Positions 38,131 to 57,200 of a stretch of DNA of 64,000 bases are shown piece after piece. Source of the stretch: Thermoplasmatota archaeon (lineage in GTDB: Archaea; Thermoplasmatota; Penumbrarchaeia; Penumbrarchaeales; Penumbrarchaeaceae). The position numbers and the translations under genes are program-made. Under the pieces are notes generated by a model, which saw only the letters and a list, made by a program, of their open reading frames with translations, was not told the origin of the DNA and did no database searches. The stretch's first letter is position 1. Each line of letters begins with the position of its first letter. The stretch is from the NCBI GenBank assembly GCA_029762535.1, contig JARVGK010000001.1, forward strand, positions 32,368-96,367, given 5' to 3'.

Positions 38131-40352
38131 CCGTAATATGTAAGGCCTTTATCTTCTTTCTCCTTCTTATTAATTCCGCCCTTCCAATCGTCCATCAATC
38201 GTTTGTAAGCATCGATGGTCGCCTGGTCGACGGAAGGTTTGATCTCGGATAGGGCCTGCTGGAAATCGACCAAACCCACGAAGGTCGAGCTCAGATCGTT
38301 CCTAAGAGCATGAAGGGCCGCTTCACGGCACACTCCCTCAAGGTCGGCCCCTGTATATCCCTCCGTCCGATCGGCGATGTCCTCCAACGAAACATCCCCG
38401 GCCAAGGGCATGTCCCTGGTGTGGATCCTCAATATCTCGAGCCTCTCGTCCTTCGAGGGGGGTCCTATGAAAAGCATCCTGTCGAACCTTCCGGTCCGCA
38501 GGAGGGCCGGGTCGAGCATATCTGGCCTGTTGGTAGCGGCCAGAACCATCACTCCCCGCATATCCTCGATCCCGTCCATAGATGTGAGTATCTGGTTCAC
38601 AAGCCGTTCCTGGACGCTGCTGCTCGAGGACATTGTCCTCTTGGGAGCGATCGAGTCTATCTCGTCGAGGAATACTATACAAGGTGATACCTGTCGGGCC
38701 TTCTTGAATATGTCTCTGACGGCCTTTTCGGAGTCGCCGACCCATTTCGAGAGAACCTCCGGACCTTTTATCGATATGAAATTGGCCCTGCTCTCCGTTG
38801 CCACCGCCCGCGCTAGCAGGGTCTTGCCCGTTCCCGGCGGTCCAAAGAGCAGTATCCCGCTCGGTGGTTTGATCCCCATCCTGCTGAAGACCTCCGGATG
38901 AGAGAGGGGCCATTCGACCGCCTCCTTCAGCATCTCCTTTACCGATGATAGGCCTCCGACGGAAGACCATGGGACCTTGGGGACCTCTATCATCACTTCT
39001 CTTATTGACGAGGGCTCGATCTCCTTCAGGGCCTCGTGGAAATCGTCCATGGAGACCACGAGCCTTTCGAGCAGGTCGGTGGAAACGGGCTTCTCCAGGT
39101 CTATGTCGGGCAGGTTCCTCCTTAGGCATTTCATGGCGGCCTCGCGGGTGAGGGCGGCCATGTCCGCGCCGACGAATCCGTGGGTCATGTCAGAGAGCTC
39201 CTCGAGGTCCACCTTCTCGTCCATGGGCATGTTCCTCGTGTGGACCTGAAGGACCTCTATCCGTGAGTTCCTATCCGGGACCCCGATCTCTATTTCCCTG
39301 TCGAACCTGCCCGGCCGCCTGAGGGCCGGATCCATGTCGTTGACCCTGTTCGTGGCGGCGATGACTATCAATCTTCCCCTCTCGTCAAGGCCGTCCATCA
39401 GCGTCAGGAGCTGGGCAACGACCCTCCTTTCCACCTCACCTTTCACATCGTCGCGCTTGGGAGCTATGGAATCGATCTCATCTATGAAGATCACGGCCGG
39501 AAGGTTCTCCTGAGCCTCCCTGAAGCGGTCCCGTAGGTTCTGCTCCGTCTGCCCGTAGTACTTGTTCATGATCTCAGGGCCCTGTATGGAGAAGAAGTTC
39601 GCACCGCTCTCGGATGCGACCGCTTTGGCTATGAGGGTCTTTCCCGTTCCCGGGGGGCCGTGGAGCAGCACTCCCTTGGGAGGGCTGATTCCAAGCCTGT
39701 CGAACAGCTCTGGGCTCTTCATCGGCAGCTCGATGATCTCTCTGACCCGTTTGAGCTCCTCTTTGAGCCCTCCGATGTCCTCGTATGCCACTGAGGGTAT
39801 GCTCTCCTCCTTATGCGTCTCCTTTGCGATCTTGATCTCGGTATCCGATCCGATCTGGACTATGCCCGAGGGTTTCGTCGTCTGGACGATGAACGGCAGC
39901 TGATTCCCCATCAATGCGATTCCCTGGATTATCAGCGTATCGTCCTTGTGAAGGGGTCTCTTCAGCAGCGCCTTCCTGACGAAATCCTCGATACCGTTCG
40001 CGAACCGAATATGGGACAGGTTTCCGATCGCCGGCGAGATCACCACCTTCTCAGCTGGTTTGGGATCGATCTTCTTGACCGTTACCCTGTCGCCGATGGA
40101 TACCTCGGCGTTCTTCCTGGTCAGACCGTCTATTCGGATTATGTCCCTGTTCTCGTCCTGCACTGGGGCCCGCCATACTACCGCCGCGGTCTCCCTCTTA
40201 CCATTGATACTGATTATGTCCCCTGGGGATATACCCAGCTCCTCCCGGGCCTGGGAAGTGAGCCGTGCACGGGAGTAGCCTACATCGTTCTTCAAGGTCG
40301 GTTCGACCTTGAGCGTCACCTTTTTCTCCAAGTTCACACCCCATTTGCACAA
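38127..40352 (-). CDS. cdc48: Cdc48/VCP-like AAA+ ATPase (N domain plus D1 and D2 AAA domains)
   Basis: Two Walker A (GPPGTGKTL twice), Walker B ([16 protein letters not shown]), second-region-of-homology arginines; 741 aa. Confidence 0.95.
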
Positions 40353-40389: not shown

Positions 40390-41034
40390 CTATTGGTCGG
40401 ATGCGTTCTCCAGGTTCAGGCGTCTTCCCTTGATCCTGGCGATCCTCATGGCCGAGTCACGATGTGTGTCCACGGGCTTCACTGATGTGTCCCTCTCGTC
40501 GACCATCTCGATGATGTCCCTGAAGCGGTCCAGGGCCGAGATGATCCTATCTCTGTTCGACGGGTCCCCATCCCCGATGCGGATCACAGAGCTTCTGGGA
40601 AGCAGTGATCCGACCGATGCCTTGAACTTCACCGGTACATTTCCGGGTTCCGTGGTGGTGGAAGAGTTTATTAGGACCCCATCGGCCAGGACGGCAAGGC
40701 CTATCCTCAGTCCGGGATCTATGCCGAAGGCCATCCGGCGGGGTTTGAAAACCCCCTTTGCCTTGGCAACGGCCCTGCTCACCGTCATGTGAGGGTCCCT
40801 CATCGGACGAAGTATGGGCGGCCTTCCGGCAGCGAAAACGGGCCTGTCCCCCTCAACGATAGCGGCATCCACGCGCCTATCGACCCTCTCACCGGGTGCG
40901 AGGAGAATATAACCGATCCCCCTTTCTTTGAATGCTTTCACGAGATCGAAGACCTTGGAGAAATCACTCGTACACACGGCGAAGGTCAAACCATCACCCA
41001 TCGGTCGTCGGCCCCTACCGCTCTTTGCCATCAC
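40390..41034 (-). CDS. protein with C-terminal YqgF/RuvC-like (RNase H-fold) domain
   Basis: MAFGIDPGLRIGLAVLADGVLI ... IRIGDGDP ... VDERDTS parallels YqgF GlDlGtkriGvAv...GlP...DERlST; N-terminal ~90 aa unknown. Confidence 0.45.
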   Translation of the reverse strand: MMAKSGRGRRPMGDGLTFAVCTSDFSKVFDLVKAFKERGIGYILLAPGERVDRRVDAAIVEGDRPVFAAGRPPILRPMRDPHMTVSRAVAKAKGVFKPRRMAFGIDPGLRIGLAVLADGVLINSSTTTEPGNVPVKFKASVGSLLPRSSVIRIGDGDPSNRDRIISALDRFRDIIEMVDERDTSVKPVDTHRDSAMRIARIKGRRLNLENASDQ

Positions 41035-41605
41035 CGTTCCCCTTCGGTTCGTACTCGACTGCTATGATCCTGAATTTTCTGCCCTCGCCCTTCTTCTTTT
41101 TAGGCGCTTTTTTCTTTTTGGAGACGACCGCGAATTCCAGCGTCATCTCGGTAGGTTCGTCGCGCTCCTCAGAAGGATCCTCGATCACCTGCGCATCGAC
41201 GATCTCCTCGGCCATGGCGATCTTTCTCTGGAACTTCCTGTCCCTGATGAATACCTCCTTCATGCTGCGGAGCACCCTTTTCATCTTGCCATCCAGGTCC
41301 CTCTCCTCTTCCTCTATGATGAAATCGTCGAACCCCTCCTCATCGATGATGATAGCGTCGGCCGTTCTCCCATTATCGGATGAAAAACCATCATCGAACC
41401 GATCCTGCCTGGGATGGTCGAGCAGAGCTGATTTCGCCTCGTTTAGAAGCCTCATTATCTCCTCGCCCTCCTTTCTCACCGCAGGAGGCAGTTCGCTCAT
41501 CTTGTCCGGGTGATAGACCTCGGCCATCCGCCTGTATGCTATCTTGATCTCTTTGGGAGAGGCGTTTTGCGGTATCGAGAGCAATCTATAGTAATCAACG
41601 GTCAA
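41015..41605 (-). CDS. J-domain (DnaJ-like) protein with acidic middle and Lys-rich C-terminus
   Basis: DYYRLLSIPQNASPKEIKIAYRRMAEVYHPDK with the HPD tripeptide; no Gly/Phe or zinc-finger regions of full DnaJ. Confidence 0.8.
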   Translation of the reverse strand: MTVDYYRLLSIPQNASPKEIKIAYRRMAEVYHPDKMSELPPAVRKEGEEIMRLLNEAKSALLDHPRQDRFDDGFSSDNGRTADAIIIDEEGFDDFIIEEEERDLDGKMKRVLRSMKEVFIRDRKFQRKIAMAEEIVDAQVIEDPSEERDEPTEMTLEFAVVSKKKKAPKKKKGEGRKFRIIAVEYEPKGNGDGKER

Positions 41606-41758: not shown

Positions 41759-42163
41759 GTGGGGAAAGATATCATGAGATCGGTCGGAAAGGTAATGAGC
41801 TTCTCAGCGACGGGGGCCATAGTCATCAGGTCGGATTCGGCACCTCGAATAGGAGGCAAAGTATGTGATATGAGAGGAAGGGAGATCGGCAGGATAATCA
41901 GGGTAACGGGTCCTGTCGCAAGACCGTATACCATCGTCAAGCCTCTCAAGGACCTGCCCGATGGGATGAACCGCTTGATCGGAAGGGAGCTGTATCTCTC
42001 CGAGATGCCGGAGAAGCGAAGTACGGTAAGCCACGTACGCAGGGATGAGAGAAAACCCAGGGCCGGGAACGATCCGCCTCGTTCCAAGAGCTACGGAAAA
42101 AGGAGCGGGGCCGCCCCAAACAAGAGGCAGGACCGCAGGAGTAAATGGAACCCCCGAGGTTGA
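41759..42163 (+). CDS. gar1: H/ACA ribonucleoprotein complex subunit Gar1
   Basis: MRSVGKVMSFSATGAIVIRSD...IGGKVCDMRGREIGRIIRVTGPVARPYTIV; basic RG/K-rich tail; likely ATG start at 41774. Confidence 0.75.
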   Translation: MGKDIMRSVGKVMSFSATGAIVIRSDSAPRIGGKVCDMRGREIGRIIRVTGPVARPYTIVKPLKDLPDGMNRLIGRELYLSEMPEKRSTVSHVRRDERKPRAGNDPPRSKSYGKRSGAAPNKRQDRRSKWNPRG

Positions 42164-42203: not shown

Positions 42204-42596
42204 ATGGTCGAGAACCACGAGCTATACTTCCACGGTAGGCCCGATCCCGCTTCAGGCCAGATATCGATCGGTCTTGTTCTTGTAAAACAGGGAAGGGTTT
42301 TGGACACGATGAACGGGAGCGTCTCATATTCAGGCAGCCGGGAGAAGGCGCAGTGGGAGGCACTCGTACAGGGCATGTTATTCGCCTCCTCCCATGATGT
42401 CAGAAGGCTGATCATGAAGGGCGATTCGAAATACGTCATCAACTATATGAACGGTGAAATGCCCAGAAGGGATTTCACAGAGATGGAGCATCTCCTTATA
42501 GCGAGGAAGAAGCAGCTCCTTTTCGATCAATGCTTCTTCCAATGGGTCCCCGAGAGCGCCAATTCCCAGGCGATACAACTTTCGAGGTCCGCTTGA
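42204..42596 (+). CDS. small RNase H-like-fold protein (possibly degenerate catalytic residues)
   Basis: LYFHGRPDPASGQISIGLVLV...SREKAQWEALVQGMLFA...KGDSKYVINYMNG resembles RNase HI layout but DGS reads HGR. Confidence 0.3.
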   Translation: MVENHELYFHGRPDPASGQISIGLVLVKQGRVLDTMNGSVSYSGSREKAQWEALVQGMLFASSHDVRRLIMKGDSKYVINYMNGEMPRRDFTEMEHLLIARKKQLLFDQCFFQWVPESANSQAIQLSRSA

Positions 42597-42677: not shown

Positions 42678-44132
42678 ATGAGGCTAAGGTTGTTCAACAC
42701 CCGAAGCATGGAAAAGGAGGATTTCGTGCCACTCGAGGAGGGCTGCGTAAGGATGTACGTTTGCGGCCCTACCGTGTATGACAACTGTCACGTCGGACAT
42801 GCAAGGAGCTATGTGGCCTTCGATGTTCTGAGGAGTTATCTCTCGTACAACGGCCTGACCGTGACATACGTTCAGAACTTCACGGATGTGGACGACAAGA
42901 TCATCAACAGGGCGCGAGAGAGGGGCATCCCGCCTCTGGTATTGTCCGAGCAATACATCCAGGAATACTTCGAGGACATGGGCGCTCTGAACGTTCAGAG
43001 GGCGACCATACACCCGAAGGCCTCGGAAACGATCCCGGACATGATAAACATCATATCCTCTCTGATCGGGAAGGGTTACGCCTACGAGGTCAACGGCTCC
43101 GTGTATTTCGAGGTCGAGAAGGCCAAGGAGAGGTTCGGACAGCTCAGACATCAGTCCCTGGACGATATGAGGGACGGAGCAAGGATCGAGGTCGATGAGG
43201 AGAAGAGGAGCCCCAAGGACTTCGCACTTTGGAAAAGGGCGAAGGAAGGGGAGATCTCCTGGGATTCCCCCTGGGGCAGGGGCAGGCCAGGATGGCATAT
43301 CGAATGTTCGACGATGTCCACCAAATACCTGGGAGACACGATAGATATCCACGGCGGGGGGATGGACCTGGTGTTCCCGCATCACGAATCGGAGATCCTC
43401 CAGTCGGAATCTTACAGCGGACAACAGTTCGTCCGTTACTGGGTACACAACGGTTTCGTTCAGATAGACAGTGAGAAGATGTCCAAATCCCTGGGGAACT
43501 TCTTCACGATCAAGGACGTCCTGGAACGCTTCGAACCCATGGTGCTGAGGTTCTTCCTTCTCTATACTCATTACAGGTCTCCAATAGATTTCTCGGATCA
43601 GGCCTTAGAAGAGGCGGGAAGGGCTCTCGAAAGACTCAGGTCCATGTACGGTTATCTGAAGAAGGCCGTGGGATCGGTCGAGGAGGGCGTCACCCCCGAT
43701 CTGGGAGAACCGTCCGAAAAGGCCGTAAGGGCCGCGTTCGAAATAAAGAAAGCCTTCATGGAAGCTATGGACGACGATCTCAACACAAGGGTCGCCATTG
43801 TCCAGTTGTTCCGTCTCGATGACGAGGTGAAGGCGATGAGGTCGGAAGCCGATCTGGATAAGGCGAGCGCTCACATGCTCATGTCCCTGCTCGAGGAGCT
43901 CTCAGGCGTTCTGGGGCTTTCCTTCGATGTCAGGGAGGAGGCCAAGGAAGCGGATCCTGACATACTACGCTCGCTCATCGAACTTTTATTGGAGGTGAGG
44001 AACGATGCGAGGAAGAACAAGGACTGGAGAACAGCGGATCTGATCCGGGACAGGCTTGGTTCTTTGGGGGTAAGGATCGAGGACACTGGGGAGGGCACGT
44101 CCTTCACGATCTCGAAACGGGCCGCCAAATGA
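42678..44132 (+). CDS. cysS: cysteinyl-tRNA synthetase
   Basis: CGPTVYDNCHVGHARS (HIGH) and KMSKSLGN (KMSKS); 484 aa. Confidence 0.95.
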   Translation: MRLRLFNTRSMEKEDFVPLEEGCVRMYVCGPTVYDNCHVGHARSYVAFDVLRSYLSYNGLTVTYVQNFTDVDDKIINRARERGIPPLVLSEQYIQEYFEDMGALNVQRATIHPKASETIPDMINIISSLIGKGYAYEVNGSVYFEVEKAKERFGQLRHQSLDDMRDGARIEVDEEKRSPKDFALWKRAKEGEISWDSPWGRGRPGWHIECSTMSTKYLGDTIDIHGGGMDLVFPHHESEILQSESYSGQQFVRYWVHNGFVQIDSEKMSKSLGNFFTIKDVLERFEPMVLRFFLLYTHYRSPIDFSDQALEEAGRALERLRSMYGYLKKAVGSVEEGVTPDLGEPSEKAVRAAFEIKKAFMEAMDDDLNTRVAIVQLFRLDDEVKAMRSEADLDKASAHMLMSLLEELSGVLGLSFDVREEAKEADPDILRSLIELLLEVRNDARKNKDWRTADLIRDRLGSLGVRIEDTGEGTSFTISKRAAK

Positions 44133-44257
44133 TGACATTCCACACCTGTGGCGCGTTTCTCTTTGACATATATCATGACACATTTAGGGTAATCCTTTTT
44201 AATTCTCGGGGTCAAACCCTATGCAGCGATCGAAGGAAGGTCCACACAGGTGTTGAG

Positions 44258-47200
44258 ATGAAACTGGGAAACGCACGATCGGCAGCCGCCCTGGCCATTC
44301 TATTGCTAATGACCCTCCTGCCCGTTGGCCCCATGATATCGGGGGCGGGATCAGGGGTGTTTGAGGGGGATATCGAAGAGCAGGAGATCGCCGATCAGTT
44401 ATCCTCCAGGCTCGTTTCGATGGGTTTCAGACCGAGGCATCCATACCATGGTTCCAATTTCATACAGACCCCCTCTCCCGCGCCCGAAGGGGCCCGGATA
44501 CATCCTACCGGAACCGCATCTATCGAAATGCACTCCTCTTCAACAAGATACAGCTGGGAAAGTTACTATTCAGATGATATTCTGGACGTCTATGTGGATA
44601 CCAGCACATCCGGCGGAGGCTCCCTATCCTCTCAGGAGGAGACCTTGCTCGACGCGGTAATAACCGATTTCATAGATTACTCCTATCCCAGGGTCAAGGA
44701 CTGGTATGATCCGCTGAACAGGGTGTCCAGCGTGACCTTCTACATCCACCAGATCGACGGGAGGAGCGGCACGGGCGGTTATTATTCGCCGGGTACCGAC
44801 GAGTTCCACATCGACAGGGCCGACATGGACTGGGCAGGGGAGATCGCCGCCCACGAGTTCCAGCATTACATACACGACAAGTACGACCGCTACGAGAACC
44901 TGTGGATAAACGAGGGAATGTCCGATCATGCCGCCTTCCTCGTTTACGGATACGCCTCCGTCCTGTCGAGCCATCTCGCCGTATATTTCAACTACTATCC
45001 TTATACGACCCTGCCGATAGACGATTACAGTTTCTACAGGGATGGCACCACCAGATACTACGGCGTCGCCTTCGCCTATCAGCTATACATGACCCATCAT
45101 TACGGGGGCAAGAACTGGTCAAGGGCCCTTATCAGGTCCTCTCAGAGTGGCATCTCAGGCGTGAACTCGGCACTGTCAACTCTGGGGCACACGGACCGCT
45201 TCCAGGACACCTTCGAAAAATGGATGGTCGCCTCCAGGGTGAACGACAAGGACGCCGGCAACAACGGCGAATATTCCTATGCCACCAGAAACTATCCTTA
45301 CGGCACCCTCCAGACGAAACTTATGGGGTCCTACAGTGGGATCCCGGTCGAGTCGGACGGTCAGATAGGACCCTACGGGCCCCAGTCCTTCAGGTTCACC
45401 TCATCAGCTGGATCGGCCAACACCTACAGGCTGTCGGTGGAGGTATCCAAAGGGTCCCTGTCCTTCGCTGTATATCCTGAGGTCTCGACCTTACCGAGGC
45501 AGGTTACCCTCATAAACTCCGATAGTGGATCGGCCATCTTCGATCTCGATGGATGGGGGAAGGACTTTCAGGCGTTCCAGGTGATCGTCTCGACCACCTC
45601 TTTGGCCGACCTCTCCATCGAACTGGACATACTCGATCTCGAGCCGCCGGTCACGATGTTCGGGATCAATCCTCCCTTACCCGACGGGGATGACGGATGG
45701 TTTATCTCGAAACCGTTGATAACGATGGCGACCGAGTCCGGAGCCACTACCCACTACAGGATAGATCAAGGACCGGAGATGCTTTACAACCAGCCCGTTT
45801 ACCTCGATGACGGGGTTCACACGTTCTCATACTGGTCCATTGACAAGAAAGGCAACGTCGAGGAAGCCAGACATGTCGATCTGAAGATCGACACGGAGGT
45901 TCCGAAGACCTCCATAAGCATAGACCCTGCCGTGCCGGACGGATATTGGTATACGGCCACCCCAACAATAACCCTCGGGACCGATCATCCTGATTCTTCC
46001 ATACACTACAGATGGGACCAGGAGGATTTCGTTCTTTACAGTTCACCGATCAAGGCACCGGAGGGGGAACATCAGCTTTCATGGAGGGCTGTCGACCAGG
46101 CGGGCAACCAGGAAACTCCCGGGAACATGCTTTTCAAGGTCGATACTCTGAGACCGACCCTGTCCTATTCCATTTATCCCTCGGAACCCGACGGGATGAA
46201 CGGCTGGTACGCGTCGGCTCCAAGGATCACCCTCTCGGGCGATGCCCAGGATACGATATATTTCGCCATGGGAAGCAACGATTACTCCAGATACTCCTCG
46301 GGTATCGTGATGCCCGAAGGCATCACGAACTTCAGGGCCGTATCGATGGACCAGGCCGGCAACAGAGGTGAGGAGCTGTTGATGCAGTTCAAGGTGGACA
46401 CGATAAGGCCCAAGCTCACCTGGTCCATGGAGGGTTTCAACTACATGCTGGACAACGCGAGCCAATGGTTCAATGCCCGCCCCGTCATCGATATCCAGTC
46501 CTCCGAAGGCGGGACCAGCATCACTTATTTGCTCAACGATGAGGAAAGATCATATGATGGGCCGATCGTTATTGATGAAGGGCACAATGAGATATGGGTC
46601 CATGCACGGGACAAGGCCGGGAACGAGGCGGAACCGCTTTTCTTCATAATCAAGATCGATACTAAGGCCCCGGTGGTCCGAAGCGAACTGGGCCCACCCT
46701 CGGACAACGGTTGGTACAACGATATGAACATGAAGGTGGAGCTCGAACTGGTTGGAGAGGACGACAGGTCCTCGCCGGCGACCCTTCATTACGCCTGGGG
46801 CGATGCGGAATACAGGACCTACAGGGACGCGATCCCGGTACCCGAAGGCATCAACACGTTGAGATACTTCGCCAGGGACTCTGCAGGGAACGTCCTGAAG
46901 ATAGAGAGCATCGAGGTCAAGAAGGACACCATTCGCCCGGAAGCGGCCATGGAACTCGTCGATGTGACGAACCAGACGATACTGGTCGGCGGCGAGTTGA
47001 TAGTCGATATGAGCGGATCGAGGGACTCGACATCGAACCTCCAATTCCAGTTCGATCTCGGGGACGGGACCATCATCTCGTGGCGCAGCACGTCATCTGC
47101 CTCCCATAGTTATTCGGAAGCGGGGACATATACGATAAAGGGATGGGTCAAGGACAGCGCCGGGAACGTTGCCGAGATCGAGCGAACGATCAATGTGGTC

Positions 47201-47338
47201 GAAGAGGAGATCCCGGCCGTTGATCGGGAAACGGGAACCAACCCGTTACTCCTGGCAGGAGGGGCGGTCCTTCTGGTCCTGCTTCTGGTGATCATAGCCC
47301 TCCTGGCAGTCATCCTCGTGCGAAGGCGCAATGCCTGA
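44258..47338 (+). CDS. surface-anchored zinc metalloprotease (thermolysin-like HExxH + E) with tandem Ig-like repeats, a PKD domain and C-terminal TM
   Basis: Start MKLGNARSAAALAILLLMTLLPVGP (signal peptide) after AGGTGTTGAG; HEFQHYIHDKYDRYENLWINEGMSDHAAF parallels thermolysin HELTH...NEAISD; repeats YRIDQGPEMLYNQPVYLDDGVHTFSYWSIDKKGNVE / HYRWDQEDFVLYSSPIKAPEGEHQLSWRAVDQAGNQE / LHYAWGDAEYRTYRDAIPVPEGINTLRYFARDSAGNV; TM LLLAGGAVLLVLLLVIIALLAVILV. Confidence 0.7.
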   Translation: MKLGNARSAAALAILLLMTLLPVGPMISGAGSGVFEGDIEEQEIADQLSSRLVSMGFRPRHPYHGSNFIQTPSPAPEGARIHPTGTASIEMHSSSTRYSWESYYSDDILDVYVDTSTSGGGSLSSQEETLLDAVITDFIDYSYPRVKDWYDPLNRVSSVTFYIHQIDGRSGTGGYYSPGTDEFHIDRADMDWAGEIAAHEFQHYIHDKYDRYENLWINEGMSDHAAFLVYGYASVLSSHLAVYFNYYPYTTLPIDDYSFYRDGTTRYYGVAFAYQLYMTHHYGGKNWSRALIRSSQSGISGVNSALSTLGHTDRFQDTFEKWMVASRVNDKDAGNNGEYSYATRNYPYGTLQTKLMGSYSGIPVESDGQIGPYGPQSFRFTSSAGSANTYRLSVEVSKGSLSFAVYPEVSTLPRQVTLINSDSGSAIFDLDGWGKDFQAFQVIVSTTSLADLSIELDILDLEPPVTMFGINPPLPDGDDGWFISKPLITMATESGATTHYRIDQGPEMLYNQPVYLDDGVHTFSYWSIDKKGNVEEARHVDLKIDTEVPKTSISIDPAVPDGYWYTATPTITLGTDHPDSSIHYRWDQEDFVLYSSPIKAPEGEHQLSWRAVDQAGNQETPGNMLFKVDTLRPTLSYSIYPSEPDGMNGWYASAPRITLSGDAQDTIYFAMGSNDYSRYSSGIVMPEGITNFRAVSMDQAGNRGEELLMQFKVDTIRPKLTWSMEGFNYMLDNASQWFNARPVIDIQSSEGGTSITYLLNDEERSYDGPIVIDEGHNEIWVHARDKAGNEAEPLFFIIKIDTKAPVVRSELGPPSDNGWYNDMNMKVELELVGEDDRSSPATLHYAWGDAEYRTYRDAIPVPEGINTLRYFARDSAGNVLKIESIEVKKDTIRPEAAMELVDVTNQTILVGGELIVDMSGSRDSTSNLQFQFDLGDGTIISWRSTSSASHSYSEAGTYTIKGWVKDSAGNVAEIERTINVVEEEIPAVDRETGTNPLLLAGGAVLLVLLLVIIALLAVILVRRRNA
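45650..46960 (+). repeat. about five tandem ~85-aa Ig-like (chitobiase-C/Big-like) domain repeats inside the metalloprotease gene
   Basis: Recurring Y..W.....Y..P(I/V)...EG.H.(L/F).(W/Y)...D.AGN.E units; approximate boundaries. Confidence 0.45.
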
Positions 47339-47538: not shown

Positions 47539-50500
47539 GTGATTAATATGATCAAGGGGAAAGTATCGATAGTTATGGCCACATTATTTTTGACAATGGC
47601 GTCCTTCGGCGTCTTGAGCTTCGCTCCGGCGGGGGGCGTTCACGAGAGCGTGAGCGAGGATCCGGTCGTTCAGGGCGAGGTGGACAAGGCTTATTTCATA
47701 AGGAACGACGGCCAGTGGGACAGCCCGATGGAATATGTCGGTCAGACCTCGCTCGGGGTCATGGGGTTCTCCCCGGACGGCGTGTTCATGAACATAGTGG
47801 AGGAGGTCCTCGAGAAGGACGAGGAGGTGCATAGGTCTGGGCATATTCTCCAGTTCACCTTCGACGGCGGCTATCAGGTGCTGCCGCAGGGGGGCGGCAT
47901 GCTCGAAGGCCACATGAACTGGCTTATCGGTCCGGAAGAGGAATGGGTCACCGAGGTGCCCCTTTTCGATAGCGTCATATACGAGAACGTGTGGGACGGG
48001 ATCGACGTCCGATACACCTATGGCGAAAAGGGGTTGAAGTACGAGTTCGTACTCGCCCCGTTCGCGGATCCCTCCGATATCGCCGTGAGAGTGGAGGGTC
48101 AGAGGTCGCTCAAGTTGATGGACGGGAACCTCGTCATAGACGTGAAGGAGGGCCTGACCGTCACAGATAAGGACCTCGACATATGGTATGACGACGGGTC
48201 CTTCGAGAAGGTCAACGGAAGGATCGTTATCCTTGATGGGAACACTTATACCTTCAGGATGGACGGCTACGATCCCTCACGGGGACTCGTGATCGATCCG
48301 CTGTATTACTCCACCTTCCTCGGAGGATACGGGACGGATTACGGCTACAGCGTTGATGTGGACTCCAAGGGATACGCATATGTAGCTGGTTATACCAGTT
48401 ATTCCTCATCCGGTGAGTTTCCCACGACCACCGGCGCTTATCAATCATCCAGGGCCTCGACCTCTTCCGATGCCTACGTCACGAAGTTCAACTACGCCGG
48501 ATCCGAGCTGATCTATTCGACGTTCATTGGAGGATATGGAACTGATTATGCCTACGGCATCGACGTGGATTCCTCCGGGAACGCATATATCACGGGCTAC
48601 ACATACTACTCATCTTCTGGTATCTATCCAACGACCAGCGGGGCCTACCAGACCTCATTTACATATACAAGCTATCCCGAGATATTCGTGACCAAGCTGA
48701 ATTCGGCAGGTTCCTCCCTATCCTATTCAACATTGATTGGAGGAGCTTACTACGATTACGCTTACGACATTGCGGTGGACTCCTCAGGAAATGCGATCAT
48801 AACTGGCCGAACAGGATATTCATCCACATACACTCCCAGTTACGGGGAATATCCGACCACTTCAGGAGCGTACCAGACAAGCAGAGCAGGGACGAACTAC
48901 GAAGCTTTCGTCACGAAGTTCAACTCGGGAGGAAGCTCACTTCTCTATTCCACCTTCCTGGGAGGATGGGGTTCAGATTATGGATATGGTGTGGCTGTGA
49001 ACTCTTCCGGCGAGTTCGCTGTGGCAGGATACACCTCTTATTCCTCGTCAGGCGAGTTCCCAACCACCTCGGGAGCCTATCAGGCGAGCAGGGCAGGCAC
49101 ATCTATGGATGCATTCGTCACGGCCTTCTCCTCGAGCGGAAGCGTCATCTATTCCACCTTTTTAGGCGGCTGGGGCAGCGATTACGGAAGGGCCATTGAT
49201 TTCGACGCCGACGGAAGGGTGGTGGTCGGAGGTTACTCCTCATACTCCTCCTCCGGTGAGTTCCCGACGACCTCCGGGGCATATCAGACCTCGAGGAGCG
49301 GGACTAGTATGGACGCGTTCGTCACGAAGTTCAGCTACCACGGATCGTATCTGGTCTTCTCCACTTTCCTTGGCGGGTCCGGATCTGAATACGTAGATCA
49401 AAATTCTCTGATGGTAGGTGATAACGACAACATTTATTTCGCGGGCCGCACAGTATCGAGCGATTTCCCGACGGTCAATGCCTATCAGGGATCCATCGCA
49501 TATTCATCATACTACGATTGCTTCCTTGTGAACTTAACGAGCGATGGCTCCACCCTATCCTATTCGACATACTTCGGAGGCGGTTACTACGATTACGCAT
49601 ACGGCCTGGCAGTCGATAAGTACAACAACGCCTATGTCACCGGATATACCCGGTATTCATCCACGTATTCCACGACATACGGCGAGTTCCCGACGACATC
49701 CGGAGCCTATCAGACCAGCAGGGCCGGGGACAGCTACGAAGCCTTCCTCTTTAAATACGGGGAGAATTTCACCGATGACACAGCACCGGTCCTCGGTACG
49801 GACAGCTCGGATTCATCCGCCTATACTGGCCAGGATTTCACCTTCCAGATCGCGGTCACGGACAACGTCGGTGTAACTAAATTGCATGTGGAGTACTGGT
49901 TCGGAACAGGATCCCACACGAACGATTCGATCCCTCTACTGGAGCCTTACACCCATACGATAACGGTCCCGAACTCTCTGGACACGATGTACTATTTCTT
50001 CTCCGCGGCGGATTATCACGGCAACTGGGTGAAGGGATCCACTCAGAGCAGGTCCCCCATTGACGGATCGGGCCCCGAGTTCGCGGATATGTCCATAACT
50101 CCTGACCCGCCCACGACCGGTGACAGCGCGACGGTGATGGTGAACGTCACGGACAACGTTGCAGTCGATAACACGACGGTGATGATCCATTTCAGGGACC
50201 AGACGGACGCTTCTTACACTTCCGCATACATGACCCATGTATCGGCGGACCTGTACAGCTATACCAATACGATCGGGACATACTGGACCCGTGTATACTT
50301 CTATATTACCGCCGATGACACCGCCGGTAACAGCGGCTCCACGGCCATAATGTATCTCGACGTCGATGATAACGATCCCCCGACCTTCGTCAGCGATGGT
50401 TCGGATCCAGTCGCTTATACTGGAGATCCCTTCACTTTCAACATAACGATGAACGACAACGTCGGGATCGATTACGCATATGTGGAGTACTGGTTCGGGA

Positions 50501-53475
50501 CCGGATCCCACAACGTGAGGTCGCTGACCATATACGGGTCCGGCCTTGGCGATGACCAGAACGGTATGGCCACGATAACGATACCCTACTATTCCACCGA
50601 CAGCTTGAATTATTTCTACAACTTCAGGGACGCGGATGGGAACTGGTGGGCCTCCGGTCCCAGCGCAAACGTAACGGTCTCCGTTCTTGACAACAAGGCC
50701 CCGGACATAATCGACGTCCAGTGGTGGGACGCCTATACAGGGGACGCTTTCTATTTCTCTATCGAGCTCTACGACAACATCGACGGTTACGCCCTGAAGG
50801 AAGCCTATGCCCTGTGGTCCTATGCCGGGGACTGGGACAATTCCACGAACTCCACGCTCAGCTACAACAACGTCAACGACATGTGGGAGAGCAGTTCCTT
50901 CAATGTGAACCTCAACAGCCTTGACCCGATAACCTACTACGTGATCGCCTCCGATCAGGGCGGGAACTGGGTCGTTGACGGTATATACTATACTTACGTC
51001 TATGACAACAAGGATCCCAAGATAGTATCCGATAATTCCCAGGCCGTGGCGACGACGGGGGACGAGTTCGAGTTCAACGTCACCGTGACCGATAATATCG
51101 AGATATCATACGTCGAGGCCTACTACTACTACACCGATATGAGCGACTCGGGTTTCGTATGGCTGATGGACGACGGCTCAGGGAATTTCGCTGGGACCTT
51201 CGAGGTCAAGCACACTTTGACCTCGTTCGAGTACGAGTTCTGGGCCTATGACACCTCATGGAACTGGGCATCCAGCCCGACTCCTGGATCGAGGACACCG
51301 GTGGACAACGATGTACCGGATATCTTCAACGACATGAGCCCGTTAAGCGGCGAGACCGGCAAGACTTACAAGTTCAGGGTGATGATCACCGACAACATCG
51401 CTCTGATGCCGGGTTCTATGGAGGTCAGCTACCGCATAGGTTCCGGAACCACGACCGATACCTCCCTTACGAGGATCGCAGGCAACATCTACGGGGCGGA
51501 AGTGACCCTTCCAGGCCAGGCGGGAATGCTGTATTACACATTCTCCGCGACCGATACCTCCGGCAACGTCCACACGACGGATGAGGTTCAGGTTCAGATC
51601 CTTGACATCACCCCTCCGGTACTGGGAACACCCGCGTTCTCGATGGATGCCTATACCGGAGATGACTACGTTGTTACGATAACGGCAACGGACGATGTAG
51701 GGGTCACTTACGTCAGGATGCGCTACTATTTCGGTGACGAGATGCCCTCCACGGTCCCTTATGTCGAGGGGGTCGCAAGCGGGAGCACTTACACACTGAC
51801 CGTCCCGGTGCCCCACATGCTGACTACCCTTCACTTCTCGATAGTGGCCTCCGATGCCCAGGGCAACCTTCAGACGCTTCCGTTCGTGACCGTCGAGGTC
51901 CACGACAACGACCTGCCCCAGCTGGATGAGGACCGCAGCTCCACCGAAGCGGTTACCGGCGGGGATCTCCTCTTCAACATCACCGTTAGCGACAATATCG
52001 GGGTTTCCCATGTCAACGTCCACTATACCCTTCCGGACGGTACGATACACATAGACGAGATGTACAGGGAAGGTGACATATTCACTCTGCATATACCTAT
52101 CTCGGACAATTACAGAGGCGATCTGACATACGCCTTCGAGATCGTCGATACCTCCATGAACGCGTTCATCACCGATGAGGTCACCGTTACCGTCATGGAT
52201 GACAAGCTACCCGTGGCGGACTTCAATACACCTGAGCGCGTCATCCAGGGGGTCGAAGTGATCTTCGACGGATCGATATCCACCGATAATGTAGGTATAA
52301 TCAACTGGACATGGACCATGGAGGATATGATGTACTACGGAGCAGAAATATCGCACGTGTTCGAGGAGGCGGGTACGTTCATGGTGACCCTGACCGTCTT
52401 GGACGATCCATCACATCCGGCCGTATCCGTCGAGAAGGAAATATTCGTAATAGACAGCGAGAACCCTGTACCCCTCGCAGAGGTCCCATCGGTCCTTGGC
52501 AACCATGAGATGCTCCAGATCGACGGCAGCGGGTCAACGGACAATGTGGGAATAGACCGCTACATGTGGCAGGTCCATCTCCCGGACGGTTCCAGGTACG
52601 ACAAGTCCGGTCCGACGATGAGCCATGACATGGCCGGTGTCCTGGGCGTTGTCAGGGTCATGCTAACGGTGTTCGATGTCGTTGGCAATTCTGGTTCAGA
52701 AATGTATGAGATCAATGTTATGGACATCTTGCCCCCGACCGTGATACCCCCGGCCGATGTGGAGGAATACGAGGGTTCCGCCTTGAGGTTCACGGACCGT
52801 GATTCATACGACAACGTTGGGATCGTCGAATGGCATTGGAACATAACGTGGGACATGGGATATACCGTCCTCAGCGGCAGGACCGTGACATATTACTTCG
52901 ATACCGCAGGGAAGTACAACGTCACTTTGACCCTTACGGATTCGGGGGGCAACGTGGCCTCCTCGTATTTCATAGTGACCATCAACGAGAAGGACGAGGA
53001 CTTCGACTCCGATGGCGATGGGATGCCCGACCAGTGGGAGGACATGTATGGTCTGAACAAGTTCCTTGACGACGCGGACCGCGACCCGGACATGGACGGA
53101 TTGACCAACCTCGAGGAATACAGGATAGGAACGGACCCGCTCGACCCCGATACGGACGGCGATGGGCTTCCTGACGGCTGGGAGGTGAAATATGGCCTCG
53201 ATCCTCTGGACCCCTCCGATGCAGATCAGGATATGGACGGCGATGGCGATACGAACCTGGAGGAGTACCTTGACGGATCCCACCGGGATCCGACCGTGAA
53301 GGATGCCGAGGTGAAGGAGGAGGACAATACCGTCCTCATCATTCTCCTGCTCGTCGTCTTCGCGATCCTTGCGATACTGATCCTCGTGGGGGTCGTGATG
53401 TTCATGACGAAGGTCCCGACCGTCGAGGAGAAGTTCCCCGAGAACGATTTCCCGCATCTATACAACAAGGAATGA
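47539..53475 (+). CDS. giant (1978 aa) cell-surface protein: signal peptide, SBBP-type beta-propeller repeats, ~9 tandem ~100-aa Ig-like domains, three PKD domains, TSP3-like Ca-binding repeats, C-terminal TM
   Basis: YSTFLGGYGTDYGYSVDVDSKGYAYVAGYTSYSSSGEFPTTTGAYQ repeated ~8 times (SBBP); recurring ...TDNVG(V/I)... domains; PKD (FDGSISTDNVGIINWTW, IDGSGSTDNVGI, FTDRDSYDNVGIVEWHW); DSDGDGMPDQWE / [14 protein letters not shown] / DQDMDGDGDTNLEEY; TM LIILLLVVFAILAILILVGVVMFM. Confidence 0.8.
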   Translation: MINMIKGKVSIVMATLFLTMASFGVLSFAPAGGVHESVSEDPVVQGEVDKAYFIRNDGQWDSPMEYVGQTSLGVMGFSPDGVFMNIVEEVLEKDEEVHRSGHILQFTFDGGYQVLPQGGGMLEGHMNWLIGPEEEWVTEVPLFDSVIYENVWDGIDVRYTYGEKGLKYEFVLAPFADPSDIAVRVEGQRSLKLMDGNLVIDVKEGLTVTDKDLDIWYDDGSFEKVNGRIVILDGNTYTFRMDGYDPSRGLVIDPLYYSTFLGGYGTDYGYSVDVDSKGYAYVAGYTSYSSSGEFPTTTGAYQSSRASTSSDAYVTKFNYAGSELIYSTFIGGYGTDYAYGIDVDSSGNAYITGYTYYSSSGIYPTTSGAYQTSFTYTSYPEIFVTKLNSAGSSLSYSTLIGGAYYDYAYDIAVDSSGNAIITGRTGYSSTYTPSYGEYPTTSGAYQTSRAGTNYEAFVTKFNSGGSSLLYSTFLGGWGSDYGYGVAVNSSGEFAVAGYTSYSSSGEFPTTSGAYQASRAGTSMDAFVTAFSSSGSVIYSTFLGGWGSDYGRAIDFDADGRVVVGGYSSYSSSGEFPTTSGAYQTSRSGTSMDAFVTKFSYHGSYLVFSTFLGGSGSEYVDQNSLMVGDNDNIYFAGRTVSSDFPTVNAYQGSIAYSSYYDCFLVNLTSDGSTLSYSTYFGGGYYDYAYGLAVDKYNNAYVTGYTRYSSTYSTTYGEFPTTSGAYQTSRAGDSYEAFLFKYGENFTDDTAPVLGTDSSDSSAYTGQDFTFQIAVTDNVGVTKLHVEYWFGTGSHTNDSIPLLEPYTHTITVPNSLDTMYYFFSAADYHGNWVKGSTQSRSPIDGSGPEFADMSITPDPPTTGDSATVMVNVTDNVAVDNTTVMIHFRDQTDASYTSAYMTHVSADLYSYTNTIGTYWTRVYFYITADDTAGNSGSTAIMYLDVDDNDPPTFVSDGSDPVAYTGDPFTFNITMNDNVGIDYAYVEYWFGTGSHNVRSLTIYGSGLGDDQNGMATITIPYYSTDSLNYFYNFRDADGNWWASGPSANVTVSVLDNKAPDIIDVQWWDAYTGDAFYFSIELYDNIDGYALKEAYALWSYAGDWDNSTNSTLSYNNVNDMWESSSFNVNLNSLDPITYYVIASDQGGNWVVDGIYYTYVYDNKDPKIVSDNSQAVATTGDEFEFNVTVTDNIEISYVEAYYYYTDMSDSGFVWLMDDGSGNFAGTFEVKHTLTSFEYEFWAYDTSWNWASSPTPGSRTPVDNDVPDIFNDMSPLSGETGKTYKFRVMITDNIALMPGSMEVSYRIGSGTTTDTSLTRIAGNIYGAEVTLPGQAGMLYYTFSATDTSGNVHTTDEVQVQILDITPPVLGTPAFSMDAYTGDDYVVTITATDDVGVTYVRMRYYFGDEMPSTVPYVEGVASGSTYTLTVPVPHMLTTLHFSIVASDAQGNLQTLPFVTVEVHDNDLPQLDEDRSSTEAVTGGDLLFNITVSDNIGVSHVNVHYTLPDGTIHIDEMYREGDIFTLHIPISDNYRGDLTYAFEIVDTSMNAFITDEVTVTVMDDKLPVADFNTPERVIQGVEVIFDGSISTDNVGIINWTWTMEDMMYYGAEISHVFEEAGTFMVTLTVLDDPSHPAVSVEKEIFVIDSENPVPLAEVPSVLGNHEMLQIDGSGSTDNVGIDRYMWQVHLPDGSRYDKSGPTMSHDMAGVLGVVRVMLTVFDVVGNSGSEMYEINVMDILPPTVIPPADVEEYEGSALRFTDRDSYDNVGIVEWHWNITWDMGYTVLSGRTVTYYFDTAGKYNVTLTLTDSGGNVASSYFIVTINEKDEDFDSDGDGMPDQWEDMYGLNKFLDDADRDPDMDGLTNLEEYRIGTDPLDPDTDGDGLPDGWEVKYGLDPLDPSDADQDMDGDGDTNLEEYLDGSHRDPTVKDAEVKEEDNTVLIILLLVVFAILAILILVGVVMFMTKVPTVEEKFPENDFPHLYNKE
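48300..49775 (+). repeat. about eight tandem SBBP (beta-propeller) repeats of ~60-65 aa
   Basis: Units beginning YSTF(L/I)GG(Y/W)G(T/S)DY(A/G)Y...D(S/A)SGN(A)Y(V/I)TGYT.YSSS.(E)FPTT(S)GAYQ(T)S; approximate boundaries from residue offsets. Confidence 0.6.
49790..52200 (+). repeat. about nine tandem ~95-105-aa extracellular domain repeats (Ig/cadherin-like) each carrying a (T/S)DN(V/I)(G/A) motif
   Basis: e.g. AYTGQDFTFQIAVTDNVGVTKLHVEYWFG, AYTGDPFTFNITMNDNVGIDYAYVEYWFG, ATTGDEFEFNVTVTDNIEISYVEAYYYY, GETGKTYKFRVMITDNIALMPGSMEVSY, AYTGDDYVVTITATDDVGVTYVRMRYYFG, AVTGGDLLFNITVSDNIGVSHVNVHY. Confidence 0.5.
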
Positions 53476-54208: not shown

Positions 54209-57200
54209 TCACTGCTCTTCCACCAGGAACTCCGCACCACATCCAGGGCACGTCCTGCTTCCGACCGGAACCTCGATGGAGCATTTGGGGCATTGATATA
54301 TCTCGGATTCGAAGGATGCTCCGCATCCAGGACAGGTCGCCGCGTTCATCTCCACGGCATTACCGCACGCCTCGCAGAGGAATGTCCTCCCATCGGTGCT
54401 ACCTTCGCCTTCCACCTTCTTTACCGAGCCCATCGCCCTCTCTAGAGCTCCTTTCAGGTCCTCATCCTCCTCTGGGTTCAGGTTCGACAGCTGTTTTATG
54501 GCCGAGTTGACCGCGTCGAGGTTCATACCTCCGTTCTCGGTAGAGGCCTTGATCAGTGTCTCGACGATCTCCCGCATCGGTACGATATCGGTATTCACCG
54601 ATGTGAGAAGCCGGTCCCTCAACGATACCTCCAGCTCCAGGCCCCTTCTTTTCAGCAGCTCTGCGAGCAAAGGTCCTTTGATATCTTCAGATAATGGCCT
54701 GATGTCCACGACCAGGCCGCTTTCCAGCCGGGATCGCAACTTTTCGGAGATGACGGTTATCTCGCCGGGCGGTCTCGATGATGTCATAACTATCTGCTTG
54801 TTGGAGTTCAGCATTAATCCGAACATATTCTCGAGGATATCTTCATCGGTCGAGCTCATGATGTCATGGACGTCATCGAGGAGGATAACATCGTATCCGT
54901 TAAGTTCATTCTTTTCAATATCATCGCCCCCCAGGACCGAATTCAGCTCTTCGATGGAAAGCAGTCCGATGCTGATGCCAGAGTCCTTGGCCAGTATGCC
55001 GGTCCGGATCGAGCTCAAGAGGTGGGTCTTGCCGGAACCGGTGTTCCCGTAGATGAAGAGAGGGTTGTATGCCTTCGACGGGTTATCGGCCACGCCTTGA
55101 GCGGCTTTCACCGCGAATCTGTTCGAGTTACCCACGATCAGATTATCGAAGGTCATCGAACCTGTCGCTTCCCATCCTTCATCGGCCCCGGATGGTTCTT
55201 CAGATGGCCCATCCTCGCTCTTGGCCTCGATCTCGGCTTTTGGCGTCTCCTGCGGCATCCGGAATCCGGTAGAGCCCATGAACTTCTTGAACATCTGTAT
55301 CTCTTTTTCGAAGTTGTTCATCTCCAGCTCGAGTATGGACATGTCCTGGTCCAGGTATTGCTTGATCTTTTCTGCTGCCTGGAATCCCGAGGATATATGA
55401 TCATCGATCCTCTTGATGATCTCGCTCCTCTTCCTCCTGTCCTCCTCTATCATCGCCTCCAGTCCTTCGAGTGCGAGGCTTATCTCATCGACGAGGCCAG
55501 GATCGTTCAGTTTGAACTCGATGTCCTCGGCCTCCTTCTTGAAATGTTTCAGATCGAGGGAATCGAACCTCTCCTGGAAGCCCTCGAGTTTGATTATCTG
55601 CTTTAGCGTCTCCTCGAATTCGGCATCAAGGTCCTCGATGGATGCATCCAATTTCTTCTCCAGGGATCTGACGTTGTAGCCCGCATCCTTCCATATCTTG
55701 ACCCTGTCCCGTATCTTTTCCCGCTTGGTGTGATTGCTCTCAATGAGGTTCTTCAGGTCCTCGAAATGCTCCAGCGCTCCCTGATGGTCCCCGATGTCCT
55801 TGAGATGCTTCTTAAGCTCCTCGATGCCCGGATGAAGCCAGCTGCTTTCGACCCTGTCCCATTTCTCGATGAGCGAGGAGGCCTCCTTCAATCGCGAGAT
55901 CCTTGTCTCCATGTCCTCTATGGCATCCTCGATGTGTGGCGCGGGTGTCTCTATGAGGTCCTTGAGGCTATCTATACGATATCCTTCCTTTTTCAGTTCC
56001 TCCAGCCTTTTCTTCAGGTCGATCCTTATAGCCGTATCCGAGCGAACCCTTTCAACGAGGTCCGCGAGGTTCTTCCTCGCCCTATCGATCTCGAAGGGGT
56101 CCTGTAATAGTGACCGAAGCTCATCCGCATCTCCCTGGAAGAATCTGGTATTGATCGATGAGAGCTCCTTGAGCATCTCCCGGCAGACGGTGATGTTCTT
56201 CTGCATCTCATCGTGAACTATGCTGAAGGCGGGGAGATCGTCATCAATGACCTCCTCCACCCTCTTCACGATGAAACCGTCGGACCTCCATCTCTCGAGA
56301 TCGTTCTTGACCTTCTCTCGGGTCTCCTCCCTCCTGCCGATGTCATCTTTCAAGCGATCCATCGAATCCTGGGCCTTATCCAACTGTGTCGGGTCTATCA
56401 GTATGGCTCTCAGCTCCTCGAATCTGCCATCCAGCCATCTGCTGTCCATACCGGATAGTTCATCGGACAGTTCAGAGAGCCTCTGCACCCTCTTTTCCAG
56501 GTCCTCCAGGGCGCCTCTCAGCTCGGATATGGGTCGCTCGAACATGGGCTCGATCGATACCACTTCATACCCTCTTCCGGCGATATCATCCACTTTCTTC
56601 CTTAACTCGTCCCTTTCCTGATCGATCCGGAGTATCCTCTCCTGTATGTCGTTCAGGCGGGATTCGTATCGATCGAGATCGAATGGATCTTTCATCGAGG
56701 CTTTCAGCTCGTCGATATCCTTGGTAAGATCGCGACGATCGGTATTATCGAGCGTTGCCCCGATCTCTTTGATCCTTGCGACATTGTTCTTCAGCAACTC
56801 CATCATTTCGCGGAGGTCCTTGGCCCTCTGGTCTATGGAATCCTCGATCCTCTTGATGCTGAAGCCGCCCTTCTCGAACGTTTTCGCTTCCTCGAGGATC
56901 TTTCGTTTCTCCGCCCTCTCCGCCTCCATCGTCTCTTTCAAGGACGCGAGGGAAGATCCCGCGGCAGGGATCTCGTTGGGATCGTTCAAAAGGAACTCTA
57001 TCTGAGCGATATTCTTGGAGAAACCCTTTGCGTCCTTTTCCTTGGAAATTGCGTCCAGCTCCTCCCTGTAATCCTTCAGCTGCTGAATGGAGTCCATGAA
57101 GTTCGCCATAGAATTCCAGGCCGAATCCAGATCATCATCGAGTTTCTGCTCCACACTCTCAGTGTTGAAGCCCTCCTCCTTCCAGAGTTTCACCCACTTG

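Follow-up and report, generated by a model that had tools for sequence, protein, structure and literature searches.

The minus strand of a 64-kb stretch of DNA from a Thermoplasmatota archaeon (hereafter the window, with positions counted from its first letter) carries an open reading frame (ORF) at 40390..41034. The longest form of this ORF encodes 214 amino acids (aa) from a GTG start codon. According to the predicted structure, the product is probably a metal-dependent, structure-specific nuclease with the layout of the YqgF/RuvX proteins. An earlier note, made from the sequence of this DNA, had quoted three motifs of the ORF as a YqgF pattern. The three motifs are present exactly, namely FGIDPGLRIGLAVLADG at residues 103–119, IRIGDGDP at residues 151–158 and VDERDTS at residues 178–184. 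Their assignment to YqgF is right in substance, as judged from the predicted fold and the YqgF-type layout of the predicted active site. We consider it highly probable that the fold and the family assigned here are correct. The protein belongs to a family that is widespread in archaea, and one copy of the family was detected in the window when the family hidden Markov model was compared with the six-frame translation.

Predicted structure and active site

The AlphaFold2 model of the window protein consists of two domains, with a predicted local distance difference test score (pLDDT) of 86.8 and a predicted template modelling score of 0.82. Residues 17–92 form a small α/β unit. Residues 98–205 are modelled as an RNase-H-like five-stranded mixed sheet, in which the elements are arranged in the order β1-β2-β3-α1-β4-α2-β5-α3 (β1, 100–106; β2, 111–117; β3, 120–127; α1, 132–144; β4, 148–154; α2, 158–174; β5, 175–178; α3, 191–200). 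The top Foldseek match of the model is RuvX (7ess). A second model, built independently for the long-form relative P0006 (35% identical; pLDDT 87.4), gave the same list of structural matches.

The conservation of the putative catalytic residues was counted in an alignment of 261 family sequences. Asp106 in the GIDPG motif is Asp in 259 of 259 aligned relatives, and Glu180 is Glu in 259 of 259. The Glu180 motif, located just after β5, reads V-[DN]-E-x-x-T-[ST] across the family. Position 191 is occupied by His in 130 sequences, Asp in 116 and Asn in 8, so that His or Asp is found in 246 of the 255 sequences in which the residue is present. Gly154 is invariant. The following position, 155, is polar (Asp in 91, Asn in 72 and His in 68), and an acid is not conserved there. 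The conservation of catalytic residues, which the earlier note had proposed as a check, is thus borne out for Asp106, Glu180 and position 191. Basic residues Arg152, Arg161 and Arg163 and the pair Thr183-Ser184 are also conserved.

In RuvC, a Glu lies at the end of β4, two catalytic residues are on α3, and two extra helices are inserted between β5 and α3 (Sun et al., PMC9601230). In YqgF, the Glu lies at the end of β5, a single residue is on α3, and the extra helices are absent (PMC9601230). The window protein fits YqgF at all three points, and for this reason its active site is predicted to be of the YqgF type and not of the RuvC type. The separation of β5 and α3 is only 12 residues, and the extra helices of RuvC are absent in both models.

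The proposed catalytic set comprises Asp106 on β1, Glu180 at the end of β5 and His191 on α3, possibly together with Asp155. In the mechanism that we propose for the two-domain protein, the C-terminal domain would act as the RNase-H-fold nuclease. With Mg2+ or Mn2+ bound by its carboxylates and histidine, it would cut structured nucleic acids by hydrolysis of a phosphodiester bond, and Arg152, Arg161, Arg163 and the Thr183-Ser184 pair would hold the nucleic-acid backbone. It is rather likely that the protein is an active nuclease.

A different possibility is that the YqgF-like fold serves as a scaffold, in a non-catalytic nucleic-acid-binding module. This role has been proposed for Tex and Spt6, whose YqgF domains have this fold and for which cleavage has not been demonstrated (PMC3985635). 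Tex, however, has lost the α3 carboxylate, whereas in the present family position 191 is nearly always His or Asp, and Asp106 and Glu180 are invariant. Catalysis would require just such a strict conservation of the full YqgF triad. A scaffold role appears unlikely.

Relation to known families

No sequence match to the window protein was found in the PDB when the protein was searched alone, and none was found in NCBIfam, PADLOC, PHROG or the RuvC family of Pfam. NCBIfam also matched none of 51 family members. PF03652 (RuvX), the Pfam family by which the YqgF assignment was to be checked according to the earlier note, is unmatched at E ≤ 1. The best Pfam match is instead DUF460 (PF04312), with 13.3 bits, where the cut-off is 28 (E 0.069). 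DUF460 is also matched by 7 of 12 and 14 of 51 relatives (best E 1.1e-4), and its best score is 20.4 bits among ten relatives shown individually. These matches span only profile positions ~18–73 of 135, corresponding to the first two or three strands. The relation to DUF460 was judged by hmmscan only. Three of the 12 relatives match Tex_YqgF, and one matches RuvX (PF03652; E 0.098). Two relatives weakly match PHROG 1770, 'Holliday junction resolvase' (5.8e-5 for one of them).

Profiles of the family were compared with the PDB. Using 12 sequences, the YqgF-like domain of Tex (2oce/3bzc) was matched with an E of 0.03, and in this alignment GIDPGlrpG stands opposite GLDPGLRTG, and viRiGdG opposite IAIGNG. 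Using 51 sequences, VdErsTs...deaaAirI is paired with DERFTT...DEAAAVQI of Deinococcus radiodurans YqgF (7w89) with an E of 0.29. An hhalign comparison of the family with Escherichia coli YqgF gave nothing, but it carries no weight, since the template was a single sequence without a profile. The sub-threshold sequence matches all point to the RuvC/YqgF/Tex clade. The claim of homology thus rests on the predicted structure and on weak but concordant matches. Judged by the profile scores, the window protein is a member of neither PF03652 nor PF04312.

Bacterial YqgF/RuvX proteins (PF03652; PDB 1nmn, 1vhx, 7ess and 7w89) share the RNase-H-like core with the family, in the same order of strands and helices. 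Both have the β1 Asp in G-x-D-x-G, the Glu in D-E-R-x-[ST]-[ST] at the end of β5 and a single residue on α3 in D/H-x-x-[SA]-A, and neither has the extra helices of the RuvC type. The bacterial proteins are single domains of ~120–150 aa, whereas the window protein has two domains and 203–214 aa, depending on the start codon. The sequence identity is 14–20%. The archaeal family adds an N-terminal domain of ~80 residues and, in most members, a C-terminal three-helix extension, and about half of its members have His instead of Asp on α3.

RuvC (4ld0 and 6lw3), with its relatives MOC1, poxvirus A22 and the RuvC domain of Cas9, differs in the active site. The conserved Glu at the end of β4 is absent from the family, where this position is Asp, Asn or His; the predicted catalytic Glu is on β5, and the two junction-binding helices between β5 and α3 are missing. 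Tex, with its YqgF-like domain (PF16921; 3bzc and 2oce), is a multidomain bacterial protein of ~780 aa. This domain is without the α3 carboxylate, whereas the family keeps His or Asp at position 191. The C-terminal extension of the long-form members has no match to the HhH domain of Tex and did not raise the length aligned to Tex.

The nearest Pfam family by sequence, DUF460, is also archaeal and also of the RuvC/YqgF/Tex clade, but the two are distinct by Pfam's own threshold. DUF460/COG2433 was described as a predicted RNase-H-like family, limited to archaea and close to RuvX and Tex (Majorek et al., PMC3985635), and the average length of its proteins suggests further domains (PMC3985635). 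With this family already placed there, a YqgF-like nuclease would not be the first of its kind in archaea.

The archaeal family

An initial word-indexed search returned only 11 relatives. By an exhaustive profile search, at least 874 representatives of 50%-identity clusters were found at E ≤ 1e-3, of which 573 were at ≤ 1e-10. Their source names are all 'hypothetical protein', and the precomputed Pfam domains include one match only (P0246, PF03740). The labelled genomes are those of Poseidoniales (marine Group II, the majority), Thermoplasmata, Methanomassiliicoccales, Thermogymnomonas acidicola, DHVE2, Hydrothermarchaeota and Bathyarchaeota. Virtually every sampled archaeon of marine Group II carries a member. 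All taxon-labelled relatives are archaeal except one record, labelled [Eubacterium] cellulosolvens, on a 13-kb contig. The family is regarded as restricted to archaea, and its distribution is broad and mostly consistent with vertical inheritance. Among 185,579 species genomes, 287 loci were confirmed, and the closest of these is only 36% identical to the window protein. This value indicates that the lineage of the window lies outside those species representatives.

About 83% of the sampled members are ~250 aa long and carry a C-terminal extension of ~55 residues, predicted to form three helices. The members of the window clade and of Bathyarchaeota are short forms without this extension. In P0006 the extension corresponds to residues 204–251 (locus L001, 6001..6762) and is predicted to be a three-helix bundle; its conserved motif is G-E-I-x-E-I-Q-R-x-S-R...T-I-S...A..V..G. 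The earlier note had taken the protein for a bacterial YqgF fused to an unusual N-terminal domain in an archaeon. This interpretation does not hold, because the N-terminal domain is a constant and integral part of an archaea-wide family, not an odd fusion in one genome, and because DUF460/COG2433 was already known in archaea. None of the libraries and none of the literature searched describes the family, and an arCOG or InterPro entry may already group its members. It represents a new architecture within the known RuvC/YqgF clade, and nothing is surprising at the level of the fold.

Genomic neighbourhoods

The gene neighbourhoods were compared at 95 places, consisting of 94 loci and the window, and four more loci were looked up afterwards. 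The family gene is located head-to-head with hjc in 65 of the 94 loci, which belong to Poseidoniales and related groups. The same pair was observed in L099, a 3-Mb contig examined later. The pairing persists even where the flanking genes are rearranged. At six loci the family gene is head-to-head with the gene of the RNase P subunit Rpp21, and GluRS follows ~25 nucleotides (nt) downstream. At five or six loci it follows cca, which encodes the CCA-adding enzyme, either directly or with an overlap of the cca 3' end, and precedes purH; cca is upstream on the same strand, at 0–49 nt, in L010, L013, L015, L047 and L061. In two Bathyarchaeota the family gene is head-to-head with the gene of a RadB-like RecA-family ATPase, and genes of XPD, endonuclease III and a topoisomerase adjoin. 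In the Thermoplasmatales-like locus L098, rpS15 and a DHH/DHHA1 RecJ-like gene precede the family gene. The upstream gene in Thermogymnomonas (L073) has a sub-threshold match to DHH_CID (23.5 bits against a cut-off of 27). In L077, endonuclease III lies 35 nt upstream. The neighbours of the family are thus nucleic-acid enzymes, some of DNA repair or recombination and others of RNA maturation.

In Bathyarchaeota L091 (5001..6714) and L096 (4001..5351), ~26 nt at the 3' end of the family gene are shared with the gene of a Clp1-type polynucleotide kinase. This pairing of a predicted nuclease and a kinase may be worth its own study.

Proposed function

RNA is the substrate of the YqgF proteins of Escherichia coli and D. 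radiodurans, whereas Mycobacterium tuberculosis and Helicobacter pylori RuvX resolve junctions (PMC9601230). As the bacterial family itself is divided in this way, the fold alone cannot name the substrate of the archaeal protein. We lean slightly towards DNA, because Hjc, the group of RadB, XPD and endonuclease III, endonuclease III alone, and a RecJ-like protein recur as neighbours in separate lineages. We tentatively suggest that the substrate may be branched or damaged DNA in recombination or repair.

RNA processing is nearly as likely, because cca, GluRS/Rpp21 and Clp1 are also neighbours, several of them in tighter operon-like arrangements. The protein might trim or cleave precursor RNAs, such as pre-rRNA or the 5' regions of tRNA, as has been reported for bacterial YqgF, and this function is a serious possibility that falls short of being the favoured one. 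The active-site layout of the YqgF type rather than the RuvC type would suit it, and in E. coli, YqgF has a link to pre-16S rRNA. The immediate neighbours point the same way in several places: cca abuts or overlaps on the upstream side in the five loci listed above, GluRS and the divergent Rpp21 gene flank the family gene in six, and Clp1 overlaps it in Bathyarchaeota. Nearby in the window itself lie the genes of CysRS, of an RNB exoribonuclease and of a Gar1-like protein (sub-threshold match). On the other side, at least four lineages have DNA-repair and recombination neighbours (Hjc, RadB, XPD, endonuclease III and a RecJ-like protein), the mycobacterial and Helicobacter enzymes resolve junctions, and the proximity of cca and the aminoacyl-tRNA synthetase genes may reflect mere housekeeping gene order.

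Several observations weigh against the proposal of a YqgF-type nuclease acting on DNA. The sequence-profile matches all remain below the curated thresholds. Two consensus residues of the N-terminal domain, Pro52 and Glu64, are replaced in the window clade. The 65 loci adjacent to hjc come mostly from one order and are not independent observations. In several lineages the adjoining genes in operon-like arrangements are those of RNA enzymes, and for this reason the neighbourhood does not settle the choice between DNA and RNA.

Another function to be considered is that of a partner or adaptor of the adjoining J-domain protein and Cdc48, for example one that delivers nucleoprotein substrates to Cdc48. 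The order of a DnaJ-type gene, the family gene and cdc48 on the same strand is kept in the window, L005, L034, L074 and L088, despite an identity of only 29–36% between the family proteins of the cdc48-adjacent loci. However, only 6 of the 95 places have this arrangement (with cdc48 alone in L011), all in one Methanomassiliicoccales-like lineage, and the family has other neighbours elsewhere. No known Cdc48- or Hsp70-binding domain was detected with Pfam or NCBIfam. We regard an adaptor function as very improbable.

A mobile-element origin, either from an IS110-type transposase, whose RuvC-like (DEDD) domain would persist as a remnant or in domesticated form, or from a viral resolvase, can hardly be entertained. 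The highest structural matches include IS110-family recombinases (ISCro4, 9t56; IS621, 8wt6), and the phage resolvase family PHROG 1770 weakly matches relatives, but the window protein has no PHROG or PADLOC match and no transposase C-terminal domain, and the family is widely distributed and mostly vertically consistent. The idea was rejected on the basis of the single copy in the window and the synteny with housekeeping genes, which is stable within each lineage. A component of a defence system was also rejected, as PADLOC gave no match.

The gene and its start codon

The ORF is a real gene under purifying selection. This is indicated by the presence of an identical protein and homologues in public metagenomes and by the ratio of nonsynonymous to synonymous substitution rates (dN/dS). 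The homologues are 73%, 54%, 53% and 50% identical to the window protein, and the best E is 1e-125. Compared with the 70%-identical orthologue of L005, dN/dS is 0.16, with synonymous (pS) and nonsynonymous (pN) differences of 0.62 and 0.19. Two ORFs on the opposite strand (40430..40792 and 40789..41067) were rejected as genes, and they are considered to be shadows of the conserved and constrained coding sequence (CDS).

The start codon is most likely the ATG of Met12 (41001..40999), and not the upstream GTG. The identical protein in the public metagenomes (P0001, 203 aa, on an 89-kb contig) is called from Met12, the alignments of the homologues begin only at about residues 12–17, and residues 1–13 are disordered in the model, with pLDDT below 50. 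With this start codon, 13 nt separate the gene from the stop codon TAG (41017..41015) of the preceding J-domain gene. The features are listed in Table 1.

Table 1. Positions of the gene, of its predicted domains and active-site residues, and of the two adjoining genes
Feature	Positions	Strand	Description
Longest ORF	40390..41034	-	214 aa from GTG; single copy in the window
Most likely CDS	40390..41001	-	203 aa from the ATG of Met12
N-terminal small α/β domain	40759..40986	-	Residues 17–92; conserved motif T22-x-D24-F25
RNase-H-like nuclease domain (predicted), YqgF/RuvX type	40420..40743	-	Residues 98–205
Asp106 codon	40717..40719	-	GIDPG, end of β1; predicted catalytic carboxylate; Asp in 259/259
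Asp155 codon	40570..40572	-	RIGDG, just after β4; possible extra metal ligand
Glu180 codon	40495..40497	-	VDERDTS, C-terminal end of β5; predicted relocated catalytic Glu of YqgF type; Glu in 259/259
His191 codon	40462..40464	-	Start of α3; predicted third catalytic position
J-domain-only protein, upstream neighbour	41015..41605	-	196 aa; PF00226, E 3.4e-13; context only, no functional link shown
cdc48 (AAA+ ATPase), downstream neighbour	38127..40352	-	CDC48_N, CDC48_2, two AAA domains; context only

Local gene order

The J-domain gene, the 214-aa ORF and cdc48 follow one another in this order on the minus strand. The earlier note had described the J-domain gene as downstream and overlapped at its 5' end. 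The gene is in fact upstream, and the 20-nt overlap is between its 3' end and the 5' end of the longest ORF. This overlap is probably not real, because it depends on the longest ORF and disappears with the Met12 start. The ORF lies directly upstream of cdc48, and the spacer is 37 nt between the longest ORFs, or 58 nt between the called genes (with cdc48 called as 734 aa), instead of 38. The adjacency to cdc48 is confined to a single lineage (the window, L005, L011, L034, L074 and L088). In L034, L074 and L088, a full dnaK-dnaJ pair is located at the position of the J-domain-only gene of the window. The placement between the J-domain gene and cdc48 most likely reflects a gene order inherited within this lineage, not a functional coupling.

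The J-domain-only protein (41015..41605, minus strand) has an acidic middle part and a lysine-rich tail, and no DnaK homologue is found within the 64-kb window. From cdc48 a run of genes on the same strand extends over 34972..40352 and includes a PRC-barrel gene, a His_biosynth-family gene, DUF2240 and a gene for a 561-aa protein whose C-terminal domain is Prok-JAB. Conserved in L005, this run may be a cluster for protein unfolding and de-conjugation.

Other genes in the window were observed as follows. A 130-aa RVT_3 protein (RNase HI-like; 42204..42596, plus strand; E 1.5e-14) is encoded by a second gene of the RNase H fold, 1.2 kb away. The 134-aa ORF at 41759..42163 (plus strand) matches only Gar1/Naf1, below threshold (18.7 bits; cut-off 29.3), and may encode a divergent Gar1 of the H/ACA ribonucleoprotein. 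A 902-aa RNB-domain exoribonuclease of the RNase II/R type is encoded at 58082..60790 (minus strand; E 3e-90). The 1246-aa ORF at 54209..57949 (minus strand) contains an ATPase domain of bacterial-type DnaA (PF00308, E 2.2e-34, residues 932–1082), followed by C-terminal zinc ribbons. This domain is unusual for an archaeon, and the other genes of the contig look archaeal (Thermoplasmatota-like). Two very large predicted surface proteins of 1069 and 1978 aa (44129..47338 and 47539..53475, both plus strand) carry PKD, Big_13, SBBP β-propeller and DUF7948 domains.

Significance

Recombination in archaea is thought to rely on Hjc. Hjc was reported in all sequenced archaea except Thermoplasma acidophilum (2024 review, PMC10956419), and in an older survey COG2433 was also missing from Thermoplasma. 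The distributions of DUF460 and the present family look complementary, which suggests that the family might correspond, in Thermoplasmatota, to the COG2433/DUF460 family that is near-universal in archaea. It would then act in addition to Hjc, as a RuvX-like nuclease that resolves junctions or processes branches. The idea is also based on the head-to-head pairing with hjc, which is kept throughout Poseidoniales, and on the RecJ-like gene that precedes the family gene in Thermoplasmatales. We consider it speculative and rather doubtful. Classic members of Thermoplasmatales are reported to be without both Hjc and COG2433, and the family could be the missing junction-resolving enzyme of this order. 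A search seeded with the Thermogymnomonas copy gave no protein labelled Thermoplasma, Picrophilus or Ferroplasma among the matches listed.

For the window alone, the result is modest, one housekeeping nuclease gene (predicted) that had been correctly spotted. If the enzyme acts on RNA, it would be a candidate for the archaeal equivalent of the bacterial pre-rRNA nuclease YqgF. The family provides a concrete candidate, a conserved YqgF-like enzyme encoded beside hjc, radB, xpd, nth and a recJ-like gene. If the assignment is true, an unnamed and widespread family would join the short list of archaeal nucleases of the RuvC/YqgF type.
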